Sequence record: PZ452591.1 | DNA: 64,000 nucleotides | Reading direction: 5' to 3' (one strand) | Source of the DNA: a phage | Shown: positions 2,687-44,074 of the stretch, piece after piece | How positions within the stretch are numbered: the stretch's first letter is position 1 | Layout: every line of letters begins with the position of its first letter | Made by a program: the position numbers and the translations under genes | The notes under the pieces: model-generated | What the model was told of the DNA's origin: nothing | Databases searched by the model: none | Seen by the model: only the letters and a program-made list of their open reading frames with translations

Positions 2687-3646
2687 TCACTTCCACTGCA
2701 TTTCGCATGCTAATTGAATGAAAAGATAAGCTAGATGCAATTCAGTATTAGCTGCAATACCATGATACTGATTATTTTCACCGACAATTTCGTACATACG
2801 AATAATACTCTGTGGAGTTACACGTGAATAGATTTCTTCGGCAAGTTTACCAACGAACCACGAATAATCAGCTGCATATTTTGGTGCTAAAGCTCTGAGT
2901 TGTTTAACATCTTTATTTTTGAGAGACTCAAGAACATCATCAATAGCACCACGATCGTTAGTAACCAGTGATAAAATACCAGCATCCAAAACACCTTTAG
3001 ATGAATAACTATCGAGCTCGCCAATAGTTTTACGAAAATCAGGAAAATTCTTTTTAACCAAAGCTGCTACAACTTTCATATCAGCTATAGCAATTCCTTC
3101 ATGCTTGCAGATTTCAGTCAATCGACGAATCATCTGCTTCATCATTTCAATTTTATCTTCATCAGTTGGTTGACCGAATGTAATAACTCGGCAGCGTGAC
3201 TGAAGTGGTTTAATAATACCATCAATATTGTTAGCAGTAATAATAATACTACAGTTTGAACTATAAGCTTCCATAAAGGAACGAAGATGTCGCTGAGACT
3301 CTGCTAACCCTGAACGGTCAAATTCATCAATAACGATTACTTTTTGTCGACCATCAAATGAAGCTGCACTAGCAAAATTAGTCAAAGGACCACGAACGAA
3401 ATCAATTTTACAGTCTGACCCATTCACAAACATCATATCAGCATTTACATCATGACACAATGCTTTTGCTACAGTTGTTTTACCTGTTCCTGGAGAAGGA
3501 GAATGAAGAATAATATGTGGAATCTTACCTTTACTTGTAATAGATTTAAAGGTTTCTTTATCAAAGGCGGGAAGAATACATTCATCGATAGTAGATGGAC
3601 GATATTTCTGTTCAAGAATGTGTTCTTTTTCATTTACGGTAATCAT
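2687..3646 (-). CDS. 44: clamp loader large subunit gp44 (AAA+ ATPase)
   Basis: Walker [10 protein letters not shown]; track ORF starts at TTG 3661, but ATG at 3646 has SD GAGGAAA and gives 319 aa. Confidence 0.9.
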
Positions 3647-3681
3647 AATTTCCTCATTCAAGTTTTAGTGTAAATTATAAA

Positions 3682-21683: not shown

Positions 21684-22595
21684 TTAAGATTTAAGTAAAT
21701 CAACAATTTTAATTAACTTTTCACGCTCAGATTTAGCTTTACTACTCAGTCCAGATAGTCTGAAAATTTCATCATCATATTGTTGAATAGAAATATTCAG
21801 CTCTTCAATCTGTTTATTAAAATAATCAATTTGTTCAGAATGTTTTTCGTTACTACGAAATGGTACAGGTTTTGTAGGCAATTTAGTTGAATTGGATTCA
21901 TCCGGGCGATAAATTAAAATACAACTTGAACCAATCGGACATTTAGCACCAGATGAATATTCTAACGTTCCAGCTTCTTTTAAAACTTCAAAAGCTAAAC
22001 AGAGATGATGCCCCATATTAACATAATCAGTAGAGCGAGCTCTGACGTAATAATCATCTCCACGAGTGCTAAATTTAAAGCATTTAAGGTCTTCTGTATT
22101 ATTAGTTTTAAAAATCATTTGTTTATCTAGACCTTTAGCCAATCGAGCGCCTAATGCTAATAATCGTCGTTGATTTTCCCACAAATCCGCAATCATTTGG
22201 TCAAATGATAATTTCGGCATTAGTCGACCATAAAGGTCATATCCTTTATTATAATTGCGAAGGATTTCACTCGCGTTAATACGAGACAATGCTCCAATTT
22301 TATTAAGGGCTTTCATAATACGATTAGATAAACTCATTCCAGATCCGTTTGTTCGCTGCAAATGTTTATCTAATCCAAACCCAATATCAACTTTAAATTT
22401 ATCTAAAATTTCAGCATGAACATCTCTGTCAATAACATTCAAATCCAAAGTTGTGTTAAATCTATGAAAAAATTTATCTGGCTCTCCACGACGAAATACA
22501 GTCCATTCATTCATCATTTTTTTATTAACTAAAGATTTAATTACTGCATTGACATTATTAATTACGACTGACATATTTTCCTCACTCAATTTCAA
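21684..22595 (-). CDS. coiled-coil protein, paralog family member 4
   Basis: 303 aa; C-terminal coiled coil, related central segment. Confidence 0.55.
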   Translation of the reverse strand: MKLSEENMSVVINNVNAVIKSLVNKKMMNEWTVFRRGEPDKFFHRFNTTLDLNVIDRDVHAEILDKFKVDIGFGLDKHLQRTNGSGMSLSNRIMKALNKIGALSRINASEILRNYNKGYDLYGRLMPKLSFDQMIADLWENQRRLLALGARLAKGLDKQMIFKTNNTEDLKCFKFSTRGDDYYVRARSTDYVNMGHHLCLAFEVLKEAGTLEYSSGAKCPIGSSCILIYRPDESNSTKLPTKPVPFRSNEKHSEQIDYFNKQIEELNISIQQYDDEIFRLSGLSSKAKSEREKLIKIVDLLKS

Positions 22596-22989
22596 TTTTA
22601 CTAAATATATAGAATAAGATGGAACAGACTATATAAGCACCACACACAGATTGAACTAATACCATTCCAAAGAACCAAATAATATTATCAAACAGTGTCT
22701 GTTTTACGTCGAAAGGACGTAAACTTACAGTAATATTATCGCCTTTTTCTATTGATGAATACATCTCTGGTGAAATATATTCGCTAAATCTATAACCGTC
22801 TTTGAGTTCATATACGGCAATAAACGATAAACTAGACCCCTTTCCTTGAGTTCCTGTAAGGGTATTAACTACAGTAACATCATAATCTTTATAATGCATA
22901 TAATCATTAATTGCGTAATAACCATATGCAACTACTACACATAAACAACATATCAATAAATTCAATCTTTTAATTATCAACTGTTTCAT
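22582..22989 (-). CDS. membrane protein
   Basis: 135 aa, N-terminal and C-terminal hydrophobic segments. Confidence 0.5.
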   Translation of the reverse strand: MKQLIIKRLNLLICCLCVVVAYGYYAINDYMHYKDYDVTVVNTLTGTQGKGSSLSFIAVYELKDGYRFSEYISPEMYSSIEKGDNITVSLRPFDVKQTLFDNIIWFFGMVLVQSVCGAYIVCSILFYIFSKIEIE

Positions 22990-33630: not shown

Positions 33631-33808
33631 CTAAACGAATAGGTTCATGAATGCCATATCCCTGAACAGAAATTTCTGTCGTAGGATAAATTCCATCAAT
33701 ATCACCCATATTCCAGGATTCATTAAATTGTTGTTCGCCTGAATTACTAAACCACTCGGCGAAAGCATTTAGCACATCTTCAGAACCTTCAATAATTATC
33801 TTTGCCAT
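33587..33808 (-). CDS. hypothetical protein
   Basis: 73-aa acidic ORF. Confidence 0.45.
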   Translation of the reverse strand: MAKIIIEGSEDVLNAFAEWFSNSGEQQFNESWNMGDIDGIYPTTEISVQGYGIHEPIRLVEYDLCTGEEVKYD

Positions 33809-34170
33809 TACAAACTCTCGGTAAAGGTACGAGCGATAACGTCGCGCTGCTGTTCCGGAGTCAGAGAGTTAAAGCGAACTGCATAACCGGATACACGGAT
33901 GGTCAGCTGCGGATATTTTTCCGGATGCTTAACTGCATCTTCCAGAGTTTCACGACGCAGAACGTTAACGTTCAGGTGTTGACCACCTTCAATTTTAACT
34001 GTAGGCTGTGGCTCAATTTCAATTTCACGGGCATGCAAACCATAGAAAATTTCTGGGTCTACAAAAGAGTCCTCTTTAAAGGTTTTAGAAACGATAATTC
34101 GTGCTTGAATACCATCTTCAAAATAAATAGTGCCTTTGTGTGTGCCTTCAAGAATTTGATATGCTTTCAT
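33808..34170 (-). CDS. autonomous glycyl radical cofactor (GrcA/YfiD-like)
   Basis: 120 aa; C-terminal [25 protein letters not shown] is the pyruvate formate-lyase glycyl radical signature. Confidence 0.7.
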
Positions 34171-34177
34171 ATAAACC

Positions 34178-34507
34178 TCAATTAGAAAATAAATTTATCC
34201 AGGATTGTTCTTTAATTAAAAACGGCTCAGAATCATATGCCATTAAACTTTGGGTAATTAATCCTTTAAAAGGTCCATCAATAAATTCCATGGTAAAATA
34301 TGGAATTTTATTCATTAGCCGTGCATTAGGAGCAGTGCACAAAACTCTGCATCCTTTGAATACACCTTTTTGTAATTTGTATTGCTTGGGATAAAATTCG
34401 CTTAAAATGTTGTTATTTGCCAAAATTTCAAAATGATTCACCAATTTATTTTTAATAGTTTTTGGCGAAAAATAAAGATATTCGAAAAGCTGAGTGTCTG
34501 TCATCAT
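34178..34507 (-). CDS. hypothetical protein
   Basis: ATG at 34507 overlaps stop of upstream gene (ATGA), 109 aa. Confidence 0.45.
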
Positions 34508-35043
34508 TGCATTCCAATTACGAAAAACTGTGGACGAGTAATACCACCAATACAACATTTAATATTACAGCAGCAGTGTACAGTGTCAATATGGACACTA
34601 TAAATCTTATCCATATCAGGAGATTTGACAGGCTCATCAATTATATATAAAATTCGCGAAAGCGATAAACCTCTGAACTTGCTTCCTTTATTACCAATAA
34701 AACTGCGCACAGAATCAGTAAATAAACGAAAACGTATATCATCATTAGAATAACGCGAAAATTCCTTTTTAATGTTATTTGCAGAAATTTTAGCGTAAGC
34801 TGAAGTATTAGAAAGAACAATAACTGTTCCGCCATCATATAACCAATTAGCAGCAAAGTTAGTCACAGCAATTGATTTACCGGATTGACGTCCACCATCT
34901 ATACGAAGTGTGCAATACTGTTTAAGTAAGTCTTCAAATGGTGGGATATAATCGTTTTTACAAATTTCTTCTACTCTAGCATCAGAATGGTGTGTAAAAG
35001 CATTCATCAGGGATAGATAAGGACCAGTTAAAAATGTTCTCAT
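34504..35043 (-). CDS. small P-loop NTPase with C-terminal Cys cluster
   Basis: Walker A GGRQSGKS, Walker B ILYIIDE, C-terminal HCCCNIKCC; ATG at 35043 has SD GAGAGAA (track start 35091 lies in a repeat). Confidence 0.55.
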   Translation of the reverse strand: MRTFLTGPYLSLMNAFTHHSDARVEEICKNDYIPPFEDLLKQYCTLRIDGGRQSGKSIAVTNFAANWLYDGGTVIVLSNTSAYAKISANNIKKEFSRYSNDDIRFRLFTDSVRSFIGNKGSKFRGLSLSRILYIIDEPVKSPDMDKIYSVHIDTVHCCCNIKCCIGGITRPQFFVIGMQ

Positions 35044-35079
35044 TTTATTCTCTCTAGGTTTGGGCCATTCCGTGGCGCA

Positions 35080-35111
35080 TGAATTGTCCATTTCTGTATT
35101 TACCCATTACC
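35080..35111. repeat. 32-bp repeat copy A (flanks 157-aa internal-protein gene)
   Basis: TGAATTGTCCATTTCTGTATTTACCCATTACC; 30/32 identical to copy B. Confidence 0.7.
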
Positions 35112-35196
35112 GCACTTGGGCTCGACCTTATTACAGGTTGGCGGGAATCCCTCACAGAATCATGAGGTCCAGGTTGTTCCCATATTTCTTATTTGC

Positions 35197-35670
35197 TTAT
35201 TTGAACGATTTAACGTACTGAATAGAACCTTTACTATTCACGAAAGCGATTTTACCATTTTTATTATACATGGTAGCAGTACGCTGATAGCCATAAGTTT
35301 GCTTACCAGATTGATAACCAACTAATGCAAAATTATCTTCACCCATTTTATTCTGTTTAGCGCGAATGCGTTCATGACCATGTGCCATAAGAACCTTAGC
35401 ATCACCAGTTGCAATGGATCGACGAGTTTTTTCATCTTCAACTGTATTAACAAAGTCGTCAAATGAATCAAATTTAGCATGAGATTTATTATACAGTTTT
35501 CCATCTACTGCATAATTATATCCTTGTACATCCATCTCAACTTCTGTACCATCATCTAATACAGCAGTAATTTTCTGTCCTTTTTTAAATTTCAAAAGAT
35601 CAGTAAAAGATTCAGCAATAATTTGAGAATTAATAGCTGCCTCAGTAATAAATTCTTGATATGTTTTCAT
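35197..35670 (-). CDS. internal-protein-like capsid-targeted protein (157 aa)
   Basis: N-terminal capsid targeting sequence MKTYQEFITE shared with T4 internal proteins. Confidence 0.6.
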   Translation of the reverse strand: MKTYQEFITEAAINSQIIAESFTDLLKFKKGQKITAVLDDGTEVEMDVQGYNYAVDGKLYNKSHAKFDSFDDFVNTVEDEKTRRSIATGDAKVLMAHGHERIRAKQNKMGEDNFALVGYQSGKQTYGYQRTATMYNKNGKIAFVNSKGSIQYVKSFK

Positions 35671-35727
35671 GTATATCCTTTAAATGTAAATAGTTTTATT
35701 CTTTAAGTTTTGGACAATTCATGCGTG

Positions 35728-35759
35728 TGAATTGTCCGTTTCTATATTTACCCATTACC
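35728..35759. repeat. 32-bp repeat copy B
   Basis: TGAATTGTCCGTTTCTATATTTACCCATTACC; here preceded by a perfect 10-bp inverted repeat GGACAATTCA/TGAATTGTCC. Confidence 0.7.
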
Positions 35760-35778
35760 AGGTTCGAACTCGGCTTTA

Positions 35779-36360
35779 TTAAGAATTACCGCGGGCTGCA
35801 TTAGCAACGGCGTAAGCGTACTGAACATTAGCGTCTTTAAACGTACCTTTAGAGGTATCTATTTCTGCCTTAAAGCCGCCTTTAGTCATAACATCGGCAA
35901 ATTCTTTACGGAAAGCCATTGCATCAAGACCTTTCCATGATGATTTATGCTTGGCAAATTCAAGACCGGCAAAGTTAACAGCCTTAGCTAATTTATTATC
36001 AATAACCCATTTACCTGCTTTGGGCACAAACACCGGACCTTTCTGTTTGGAGAACAGTTTTAAATTCCATCGGCGAAGGTCTGCATCGGCTTTAACAAAT
36101 TCTGAGTCTAAATTACTAGCAACAACATCTTGAATATGGGCAAATTTAAGTCCATCAACTTCAATATTTAGATCGTTACGCCAGCGAAGTCCTTCCCATG
36201 CGAAGGCTTTAAAGTCGGAAGCCTTTGTAGCTAAGTACCGTTCAATAGGAGCTGTTTTAGGGTCAAAGCCGTTTCCCGATCGGTAGGTCCACTCATCTTT
36301 GTTAATGCCTTTGGCCTTTACTACAGAAGCTTCGGCAATAAATTCTTGATAGGTTTTCAT
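35779..36360 (-). CDS. ipIII: internal protein III
   Basis: 193 aa, MKTYQEFIAEASVVKAKGINKDEW...; CTS and size fit T4 IPIII, adjacent to e. Confidence 0.7.
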   Translation of the reverse strand: MKTYQEFIAEASVVKAKGINKDEWTYRSGNGFDPKTAPIERYLATKASDFKAFAWEGLRWRNDLNIEVDGLKFAHIQDVVASNLDSEFVKADADLRRWNLKLFSKQKGPVFVPKAGKWVIDNKLAKAVNFAGLEFAKHKSSWKGLDAMAFRKEFADVMTKGGFKAEIDTSKGTFKDANVQYAYAVANAARGNS

Positions 36361-36414
36361 GTATTTCCTTTAAATATTTTAATTAGTAATTTGTCTATTC
36401 AAGTAACTGTGAAT

Positions 36415-36444
36415 ATACTATCACAATTCCAAGAGAAAGTAAAC
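36415..36444 (-). promoter_or_regulatory. early promoter upstream of ipIII
   Basis: GTTTACT-17 nt-TAGTAT on minus strand. Confidence 0.45.
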
Positions 36445-36448
36445 AACT

Positions 36449-37417
<969 letters not shown>

Positions 37418-37421
<4 letters not shown>

Positions 37422-43506: not shown

Positions 43507-43740
43507 TTATTTTTTACGAAAAATTGATTTATTTTCTGCTGCCCATTTTTCAATAACTGCAGCAGGACCAGTAACAACAATTTTATCACCGTAATCTTCT
43601 GCGGCGAGTTGACCGAAATTATCTAATGCATCACGAAGAACTCCATGAGGCATTTCACCCATTTTATCTTTCTTGCCAGTGTAAATAAACTCAACTTTTA
43701 CATCAGCAGTTTCAGCAATAAATTCTTGGTAAGTTTTCAT
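43507..43740 (-). CDS. internal-protein-like capsid-targeted protein (77 aa)
   Basis: ATG at 43740 gives MKTYQEFIAETADVK... with canonical CTS; track ORF adds 4 residues. Confidence 0.6.
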   Translation of the reverse strand: MKTYQEFIAETADVKVEFIYTGKKDKMGEMPHGVLRDALDNFGQLAAEDYGDKIVVTGPAAVIEKWAAENKSIFRKK

Positions 43741-43816: not shown

Positions 43817-44074
43817 TTATTTTAAATCTTCTAATCGTTTCTTCATCTTAGAACCATTTTTAGCAATTTCTCCTGCATCGGAGCATAATGCTAAAAGTGC
43901 TTTAACTTTAGTTTGGTCTCCTTTAAAAGATGAAGGATCGACCGCAGCAGCAAGTTCTTTAATACGAGAGAAAAGACGCTCAGCTTCAGCTAAAGCCATT
44001 CCAAGCTTTACTTCCATACCGTGGGAAGATTCAGTGATAGTAGTTTTTGTAGCAAACTCTTTGAAAGTTTTCAT
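43817..44074 (-). CDS. internal-protein-like protein with variant targeting sequence (85 aa)
   Basis: Starts MKTFKEFATKTTITE, a variant of the MKTYQEFIAE CTS. Confidence 0.5.
   Translation of the reverse strand: MKTFKEFATKTTITESSHGMEVKLGMALAEAERLFSRIKELAAAVDPSSFKGDQTKVKALLALCSDAGEIAKNGSKMKKRLEDLK

Follow-up and report, generated by a model that had tools for sequence, protein, structure and literature searches.

The internal-protein locus between e and vs.8 in a T4-like phage: an Ip4 module and a candidate RNA element next to vs.8

In phage T4, the region between the lysozyme gene e and vs.8 carries the modules ipIII, ipII and denV, and the question arises which genes fill this place in the phage behind sequence record PZ452591.1, of which a stretch of 64,000 nucleotides was analyzed (termed the window in the following). 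An initial annotation of this DNA had found neither denV nor ipII and had read the locus as remodelled, with a novel gene for an internal protein of 157 amino acids flanked by two 32-bp repeats and accompanied by a P-loop NTPase. The features from which this reading was built are all present where they had been placed (Table 1). It is probable, however, that they constitute an ordinary combination of modules, e/ipIII/ip4/vs.8, made up of the known internal protein Ip4, the vs.8 gene of T4 and an array that ends at a conserved element before vs.8; expression, the role of Ip4, the function of the element as an RNA and the origin of its second, partial copy are the parts of this reading that we infer.

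Identity of the 157-residue protein and arrangement of the locus

The genes of the locus were identified by tblastn with T4 proteins against the window, and all genes in this part are encoded on the minus strand. The open reading frame (ORF) of 157 codons beginning with MKTYQEFITE was recovered, and it is indeed unlike ipII, since T4 IpII aligned with it through the 10-residue targeting sequence only. Judged by its sequence, the protein is not novel, as had been supposed, but Ip4, a family already catalogued in hundreds of T4-like phages. Pfam DUF7412 is matched with an E value of 5.7e-96 and 319.4 bits (curated cut-off 27), residues 1-157 aligning with profile positions 1-158, and PHROG 3155, "internal virion protein," with an E value of 6e-102. 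The copies of T2, RB18 and RB33 are 100% identical to the window protein and only their neighbors differ, in that ipIII is present and denV absent here. By tblastn, Ip4 occurs in 471 phage records, 291 of them with at least 99% identity, and about 160 copies of 60-80% identity stem from T4-like phages of Klebsiella, Salmonella and Serratia. Across phages of Escherichia and of these three genera 64 positions are invariant. The ortholog is annotated as Ip4 in Shfl2, RB32, RB51 and PST, the name is on record for the copies of T2, RB70, K3, RB14, RB32 and RB51, and the match in the viral structure library is UniProt Q38388, "Ip4" of phage K3 (template modeling score 0.96).

The locus is one of two for internal proteins, the other being the ipI locus next to 57B. 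Like other T-even internal proteins, Ip4 starts with a targeting sequence, MKTYQEFITE followed by Ala, that is identical to that of T4 IpII/IpIII in 9 of 10 positions (consensus approximately MKTYQEFIAE with an (L/I)xE site), and its gene lies in the e-vs.8 locus, between ipIII/e and vs.8. Ip4 proteins from T2, K3, RB14, RB32 and RB51, all DUF7412/PHROG 3155, share this targeting sequence and are encoded in the same place just upstream of the vs.8 boundary. The locus is best explained as the e-to-vs.8 internal-protein locus of a Tequatrovirus with the module order e/ipIII/ip4/vs.8, one of many combinations on record.

The absence of denV from this slot was borne out, as T4 DenV had no tblastn match in the window (best E value 3.8). 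In addition, neither a DenV nor an IpII homolog was found anywhere in the complete genome of ECML-134, a phage with the layout of the window and about 96.6% identity to it over 63 kb. Lack of the v gene is a classical trait of phage T2. Relative to T4, denV and the body of ipII are missing and another gene with a targeting sequence stands in their place; apparently, the two are just not among the modules of this phage. Homology to T4 breaks off at 35185, precisely at the DenV stop, and sets in again at 35639 within the targeting-sequence codons, such that a T4 segment of 744 bp comprising the ipII body and denV corresponds to the ip4 body in the window. These breakpoints, 35185/35186 in the stop codon and 35638/35639 in the targeting-sequence codons, lie outside the 32-bp repeats. 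Of the recombinational cassette exchange proposed in the initial annotation, evolution of the locus by cassette shuffling thus stands, whereas the crossovers relative to T4 do not fall in the repeats.

A different repeat, absent from the initial annotation, brackets ip4 on the other side from the 32-bp repeats. It comprises the leader of the internal proteins with its ribosome-binding site together with the targeting-sequence codons, and its two 47-nt copies (35639-35685 and 36329-36375, the latter upstream of and inside ipIII) share 89% identity. In every phage of the comparison, this leader stands before ip4, ipII and ipIII. Modules are bounded at the 5' end by the shared leader and targeting-sequence block and at the 3' end by the stop codon.

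Among annotated relatives, at least nine module arrangements occur between e and vs.8. Where T4 has ipIII, ipII and denV, VIPECOOM01 has ipIII, the partial element described below as copy B, ipII and denV. The phage of the window shares ipIII, copy B and ip4 with Shfl2 and ECML-134, while SA21RB and PST carry ipIII and ip4 and lack copy B. RB32 and T2 contain ip4 alone, RB51 and wV7 denV and ip4, CM8 only denV, SH7 a 105-amino-acid internal protein and ip4, and VEc74 the 105-amino-acid protein, a frameshifted ipIII, copy B and ip4. At least 95% of the locus is covered by 14 records, including VEc74 (with two extra internal-protein ORFs, one of them frameshifted), SA21RB and PST, and 40 loci from IMG/VR feature arrays in which denV and one to four targeting-sequence genes follow one another in any order. 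As ip4 and denV coexist in many phages, e.g., RB51 and wV7, ip4 is not simply a displacer of denV. Precise deletions of ip4 have left scars in which the leader of the internal proteins directly joins the final ip4 codons (TATTTACATT[T/C]AAATAA); CM8 and VIPECOOM01 have such a scar behind denV, and loci L037 and L040 behind ipIII. The plasticity of the locus and the promoter/stem-loop elements associated with it have been described earlier (Arbiol 2010, PMC2839356, citing Repoila 1994).

The P-loop ORF likewise turned out to be no newcomer. Its motifs GGRQSGKS, ILYIIDE and HCCCNIKCC are present in the ORF 34504-35091 (minus strand), but the gene is T4's own vs.8, located in the same place and 95.6% identical, and it did not replace denV. 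From the first ATG at 35091 the ORF comprises 195 amino acids and from an MRTF start at 35043 it comprises 179; the reported gap of 105 bp to ip4 holds for the longer form, whereas 153 bp separate ip4 from the start of the shorter one. The extension back to the ATG at 35091 is not conserved, and the match to PHROG 1488 (E value 1.5e-79, profile positions 2-177 of 177) covers the 179-residue form only. Apart from weak matches to the ATPase of the terminase large subunit, AAA_14 and HerA, the window protein contains a Walker A motif DGGRQSGKS and a Walker B motif ILYIIDEP, in agreement with the patterns GxxxxGK[ST] and hhhh[DE]E. In seven vs.8 homologs with 38-64% identity to the window protein, DGGRQxGK[ST] and IIxEP are invariant and the C-terminal cysteine cluster is not. 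The T4 ortholog is annotated with 219 amino acids (NP_049732), its first 40 codons corresponding to the non-coding boundary element described below, while the conserved protein has 175-181 residues; in all probability, as the alignments suggest, the T4 annotation is over-extended. In the T2 escape mutant PV648364.1 (L005, locus 3004-3650), vs.8 is annotated as three fragments of 102, 108 and 333 nt, which suggests that the gene is disrupted or mis-called there.

Predicted expression, delivery and role of Ip4

With regard to expression, a T4-type early promoter with an overlapping AT-rich stem-loop is located between e and ipIII, at a site that is annotated as such in SA21RB, and two late promoters precede e (Table 1). 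The former is the internal-protein-associated element of the literature; according to Arbiol 2010 (PMC2839356), Repoila 1994 observed such elements at both internal-protein loci. The late promoters are the likely source of a late transcript over e, ipIII and ip4, as predicted from their consensus. In the interval between ipIII and ip4 no promoter consensus was found, and ip4 would therefore be read through from upstream, with transcription starting at the late promoters that precede e and at the early promoter that follows it.

The capsid targeting sequence of Ip4 consists of residues 1-10 with cleavage between ITE and Ala, and in the Ip4 family a second conserved site of the type [LIVM]xE followed by [SA] occurs at E20, a residue conserved in at least 90% of the sequences. 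A first AlphaFold2 model, based on 13 close homologs, was unusable with a predicted local distance difference test score (pLDDT) of 52; with three distant homologs added, the pLDDT rose to 83.8, residues 10-18 being disordered (pLDDT below 50). In the proposed course of events, the precursor would enter the prohead via its targeting sequence and would be cut by the gp21 protease after E10 and probably also after E20, resulting in a basic protein of 15-16.5 kDa. Site conservation and the model taken together, mature Ip4 probably begins at Ser21. For the form cut at E10, an isoelectric point of 9.1 was computed.

Three distant relatives of Ip4 (P0015, P0016 and P0017; 34-36% identity) begin with MNFEQFLNES or MNFKDFLNES instead of MKTYQEF, and one of them has two motifs consisting of LNE followed by Ser 10 residues apart; this start looks like a variant capsid-targeting signal of more remote T4-like phages. 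A 1879-residue repeat protein (P0019) proved spurious as a relative, the match spanning only 20 profile positions.

The initial annotation had also regarded the 157-residue protein, as an injected protein with this targeting sequence, as a candidate anti-restriction or anti-defense effector, and for the class published work supports a role in anti-restriction. Ip1, Ip2 and Ip3 each inhibit one distinct GmrSD-type enzyme (PMC12373910), and a fourth protein with the targeting sequence, Bas37_0260, inhibits McrBC (bioRxiv 10.1101/2025.11.20.689424). Ip4 resembles these four in its N-terminal targeting sequence, the protease site, the use of two genomic loci and the mosaic of presence and absence, and by analogy it is probably delivered by the same route and has the same general role. 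Mature Ip4 would then be injected together with the DNA and would block a host nuclease that attacks modified DNA, i.e., it would be an inhibitor of a modification-dependent nuclease.

Some results limit this assignment. Packaging and cleavage of Ip4 are deduced from motifs in its sequence, and in the screen of Silas et al. (PMC12373910, Supplementary Fig. 9) ip4-10 gave no reproducible inhibition when set against 15 GmrSD groups. Past the first 10 residues, Ip4 resembles Ip1, Ip2 and Ip3 neither in sequence nor in fold. Its fold has no informative relative, as the viral structure library yielded Ip4 itself only; a search of PDB sequences with Ip4 and vs.8 returned nothing significant, a PADLOC search found nothing, and beyond the screen of Silas et al. 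no study on the function of Ip4 or vs.8 was found. Following the classical view of internal proteins, Ip4 could thus be a dispensable basic protein that fills the head or condenses DNA, and its high isoelectric point, the absence of a target among the 15 GmrSD groups and the uninformative fold would fit. We nevertheless consider this conceivable but rather unlikely: all proteins with the targeting sequence that have been worked out, Ip1, Ip2, Ip3 and Bas37_0260, inhibit modification-dependent restriction enzymes, the presence/absence mosaic suits accessory genes of an arms race, and conservation of the protein is strong, as is evident from its invariant positions.

A conserved element before vs.8 and its partial copy

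The array of internal-protein genes and denV is separated from vs.8 by a block of approximately 141 nt, the boundary element, which came up as a by-product of the analysis. A covariance model for it was built from a plain MAFFT alignment folded with RNAalifold. Among 40 diverse T4-like vs.8 loci, 39 contain the element, in one full-length copy each (68-180 bits), always on the sense strand and with a length of roughly 140-165 nt. In T4 the counterpart lies at about 64798-64938 (complement) of NC_000866.4, where the annotation assigns it to codons 1-40 of vs.8. Nucleotide-level conservation of the element extends to a Klebsiella phage and to IMG/VR contigs with a vs.8 protein of only about 37% identity. 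The sole locus without it (L074, IMGVR_UViG_2974544603_000001) encodes one of the most divergent vs.8 proteins (32-33% identity).

In the MAFFT-only alignment, all five pairs of the outer helix P1 covary (GGGAA/UUCCC, GGGAG/CUCCC, AAAGG/CCUUU, AAAGC/GCUUU and AAAGA/UCUUU), and the hairpin of Box 1 (P2) contains one variable pair, seen as AU, UG, UA and CG; RNAalifold also predicts a hairpin for Box 2. When the alignment is fitted to the model, 95.5% of the cells are paired as compared to 82.9% in shuffles, 12 pairs change on both sides, a number reached in none of 500 shuffles, and pairing falls to 28-54% when the partners are slid. Sense-strand RNA is favored because several G-U pairs are invariant. 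Box 1 contains the near-invariant ACCUGUAAUAAGGUCGAGCCCNAGNGCGGUAA and Box 2 the hairpin GCCANGGAAYGGC, while the linker hairpin between the boxes has stems that differ by lineage and a loop that usually shows AUGGA. The heptamer CAACCUG is found twice (35143-35181 and 35138-35144, minus strand), in the internal loop of P1 and in the 5' strand of Box 1, and either of them could be the partner of a single 3' strand, GGU...GG, a hint at alternative folds that exclude each other in the manner of a switch.

The element would fold as a sense-strand RNA and act either as a cis-regulatory leader of vs.8 or as an insulator that ends upstream transcripts. The fuller proposal is that it constitutes a functional RNA connected with vs.8, either cis-regulatory or binding a protein or ligand, that it forms the fixed downstream border of the array in several genera and doubles as a landing pad for new genes of injected proteins, and that it has been mis-annotated in T4 as the first 40 codons of vs.8; we give this proposal even odds. 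On the opposing side, most of Box 1 and Box 2 is invariant so that pairing there is putative, and the inner fold of Box 1 is ambiguous. Moreover, the larger covariation test was performed on a structure-fitted alignment of related sequences, and in the small MAFFT-only alignment both count-based measures are not significant. In four loci an intact copy does not adjoin vs.8, which weakens its reading as a vs.8 leader. With respect to precedence, Rfam 15 yielded no match at E values up to 1 for the region of the window and five divergent loci, and a description of the element was found neither there nor in the searchable literature; it is possibly contained in an automated catalog of viral RNA candidates (PMC10690425), the text of which does not mention T4-like phages.

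The element also accounts for the 32-bp repeats. Both copies (35080-35111 and 35728-35759; 30 of 32 positions identical) were recovered, and they extend to 59 nt at 78% identity (35075-35133 and 35723-35781); two copies in 64 kb compare with none expected from shuffles. The first, copy A, sits inside the boundary element and recurs in all architectures examined, that of T4 included. The second is part of a decayed, partial element, copy B (Table 1), that extends from the ipIII stop TAATAA, a sequence shared with Box 1, to AGAATAAAA immediately ahead of the ip4 leader. As the 5' strand is missing, copy B is unable to form the Box 1 helix, and its Box 2 has mutated to a perfect complement of the linker, resulting in the perfect 10-bp inverted repeat GGACAATTCA/TGAATTGTCC at 35712-35737 that had been reported next to one of the repeats (12 pairs when G-U is allowed). 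The perfect hairpin at 35711-35738 has a plus-strand fold of -16 kcal/mol (z -4.1). A sense-strand terminator at this hairpin was considered and discarded, because the run of T residues lies on the other strand.

Copy B is found in Shfl2, VEc74 and VIPECOOM01, but not in T4, SA21RB and PST. Its junction with the leader is nearly identical before ipII in VIPECOOM01 and before ip4 in Shfl2, and therefore the exchange of ip4 against ipII plus denV happened downstream of copy B. Four loci (L051, L052, L054 and L066) show, in this order, a full element, a gene for an internal protein and, directly before vs.8, a partial copy in which Box 2 is retained; two others (L046 and L057) have tandem copies. 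Ectopic recombination within the element, the sole invariant block beside the variable array, would leave such partial duplicates as scars, copy B being one of them. As far as the comparison of these loci tells, the repeats are footprints of module insertion, consisting of one full and one decayed copy of a conserved element.

We judge it improbable that the repeats are ordinary promoter/terminator cassettes, i.e., early promoters with AT-rich stem-loops and nothing more, a possibility that the initial annotation itself had raised. Elements of this kind are attributed to both internal-protein loci by Repoila 1994, according to Arbiol 2010 (PMC2839356), a true example is present in the spacer between e and ipIII at 36415-36444, and the plus-strand hairpin of copy B with its T-run scores as a terminator. 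Neither copy A nor copy B, however, contains an early promoter of the form GTTTAC-N14-TAnnaT, a late promoter TATAAATA or a MotA box, and the T-run follows the hairpin on the antisense strand only. In addition, the element around copy A is far more conserved than the flanking genes, with compensatory changes in helices that are unrelated to a terminator. The combination of early promoter and stem-loop that characterizes PeSL cassettes is thus found in the e-ipIII spacer and in neither repeat copy. The boundary element has in common with the PeSL cassettes of RB49 and phi1 and their T-even analogs that both are short conserved non-coding blocks beside accessory genes, which offer homology for shuffling. 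It differs from them in the lack of a promoter consensus, in being three times longer, in its occurrence once per locus at a fixed place, in nucleotide-level conservation across genera and in covariation in several helices.

It is very improbable that the block upstream of vs.8 encodes protein, be it as the N-terminal extension of a T4-type vs.8 of 219 residues or as a small upstream ORF coupled to vs.8. The block is annotated as coding in T4, one frame spans Box 1 and Box 2 into vs.8 in some phages (e.g., in L018), and in others it terminates at the start of vs.8 with an ATGA overlap. Yet the frames of Box 1 and Box 2 vary between phages, an 8-nt indel and a TAG set the window apart from T4, a TAG is located inside Box 1 in L033/L069, and start codons are not conserved; third-position variation is lacking over about 35 nucleotides in a row, with identity of the adjacent protein falling to 37%, and the PHROG 1488 profile spans the 179-residue form only. 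As frames and stops are not conserved, all coding readings considered for this block were rejected, i.e., a sense upstream ORF, a T4-style extension, an antisense ORF and a gene-60-like bypass at GGG-TAA.

Finally, we attach almost no credence to a novel internal-protein gene having replaced denV and ipII at the 32-bp repeats with a P-loop NTPase arriving beside it, since, real and non-random as the repeats are and although their copies bracket ipII plus denV in place of ip4 in VIPECOOM01, the gene is the known Ip4, vs.8 is 96% identical in T4, the homology breakpoints in the targeting-sequence codons and the stop codon are outside the repeats, copy A is universal, and the copy-B/leader junction shared by Shfl2 (ip4) and VIPECOOM01 (ipII) places the exchange downstream of copy B.

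Neighboring features and implications

Table 1. Genes, promoters and non-coding features in and around the e-to-vs.8 locus; positions are those of the 64-kb window.
Feature	Position	Strand	Remarks
vs.6	33808-34170	-	99% identity to T4
vs.7	34178-34507	-	99% identity to T4
vs.8	34504-35043	-	95.6% identity over T4 residues 38-219; P-loop ATPase of 179 amino acids
Putative structured RNA (boundary element)	35041-35181	-	About 141 nt; covariance-model match 147 bits, E value 4e-34
vs.8 start codon within element	35041-35043	-	
Box 2 of element	35062-35080	-	
Box 1 of element	35102-35138	-	Followed by linker hairpin
P1 helix of element	35177-35181 with 35143-35147	-	Encloses hairpin 35163-35167/35150-35154
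ip4	35197-35670	-	Precursor of internal head protein, 157 amino acids; with T4 proteins, only the targeting sequence aligned
Internal-protein leader (TATTTACATTTAAAGGA, ribosome-binding site) and targeting-sequence codons	35639-35685	-	5' edge of the segment differing from T4
Copy B, decayed partial boundary element	35691-35808	-	Covariance model 24.9 bits, E value 4e-4; contains repeat 35728-35759
ipIII	35779-36360	-	Internal protein III, 193 amino acids; 97.4% identity to T4 IpIII; PHROG 5341
T4-type early promoter GTTTAC-N14-GTGATAGTAT with overlapping AT-rich stem-loop	36415-36444	-	Between e and ipIII; pattern match and fold
e (lysozyme)	36449-36943	-	97% identity to T4 e; fixed upstream border of the array
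Two late promoters (TATAAATA)	36957-36977	-	Upstream of e; exact matches; equivalent site annotated in SA21RB
nudE	36981-37421	-	98.7% identity to T4

At the position of ipI, i.e., in the second internal-protein locus, two further ORFs with a targeting sequence were noted on the minus strand (43507-43740 and 43817-44074). One encodes 77 amino acids (MKTYQEFIAETADVKVEF...) and the other 85 amino acids with a divergent signal (MKTFKEFATKTTITE followed by S...); the region of the latter does not align with ECML-134, where a 96-residue internal protein is located. ECML-134, the closest complete relative, encodes an alpha-glucosyltransferase and a beta-glucosyl-HMC (hydroxymethylcytosine)-alpha-glucosyltransferase (21789-22631 and 34889-36091 of its record), a pair that corresponds to the sugar pattern of the T2/T6 type. 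An ortholog of the alpha-glucosyltransferase gene should be present in the window near 8.6-9.8 kb. The repertoire of internal proteins may track the type of DNA modification.

That T2-like phages have lost denV and that the internal-protein locus is a mosaic is already known, as is Ip4 itself. Hundreds of phages, including candidates for therapy, encode this orphan injected protein, and its target is worth finding because all four characterized relatives disarm modification-dependent nucleases. The boundary RNA, a by-product, is possibly more important than the original finding: should it prove real, the best-studied phage would gain a new regulatory element, the annotation of T4 vs.8 would be corrected, and there would be a concrete anchor for the way in which T4-like phages add and drop anti-defense cassettes.

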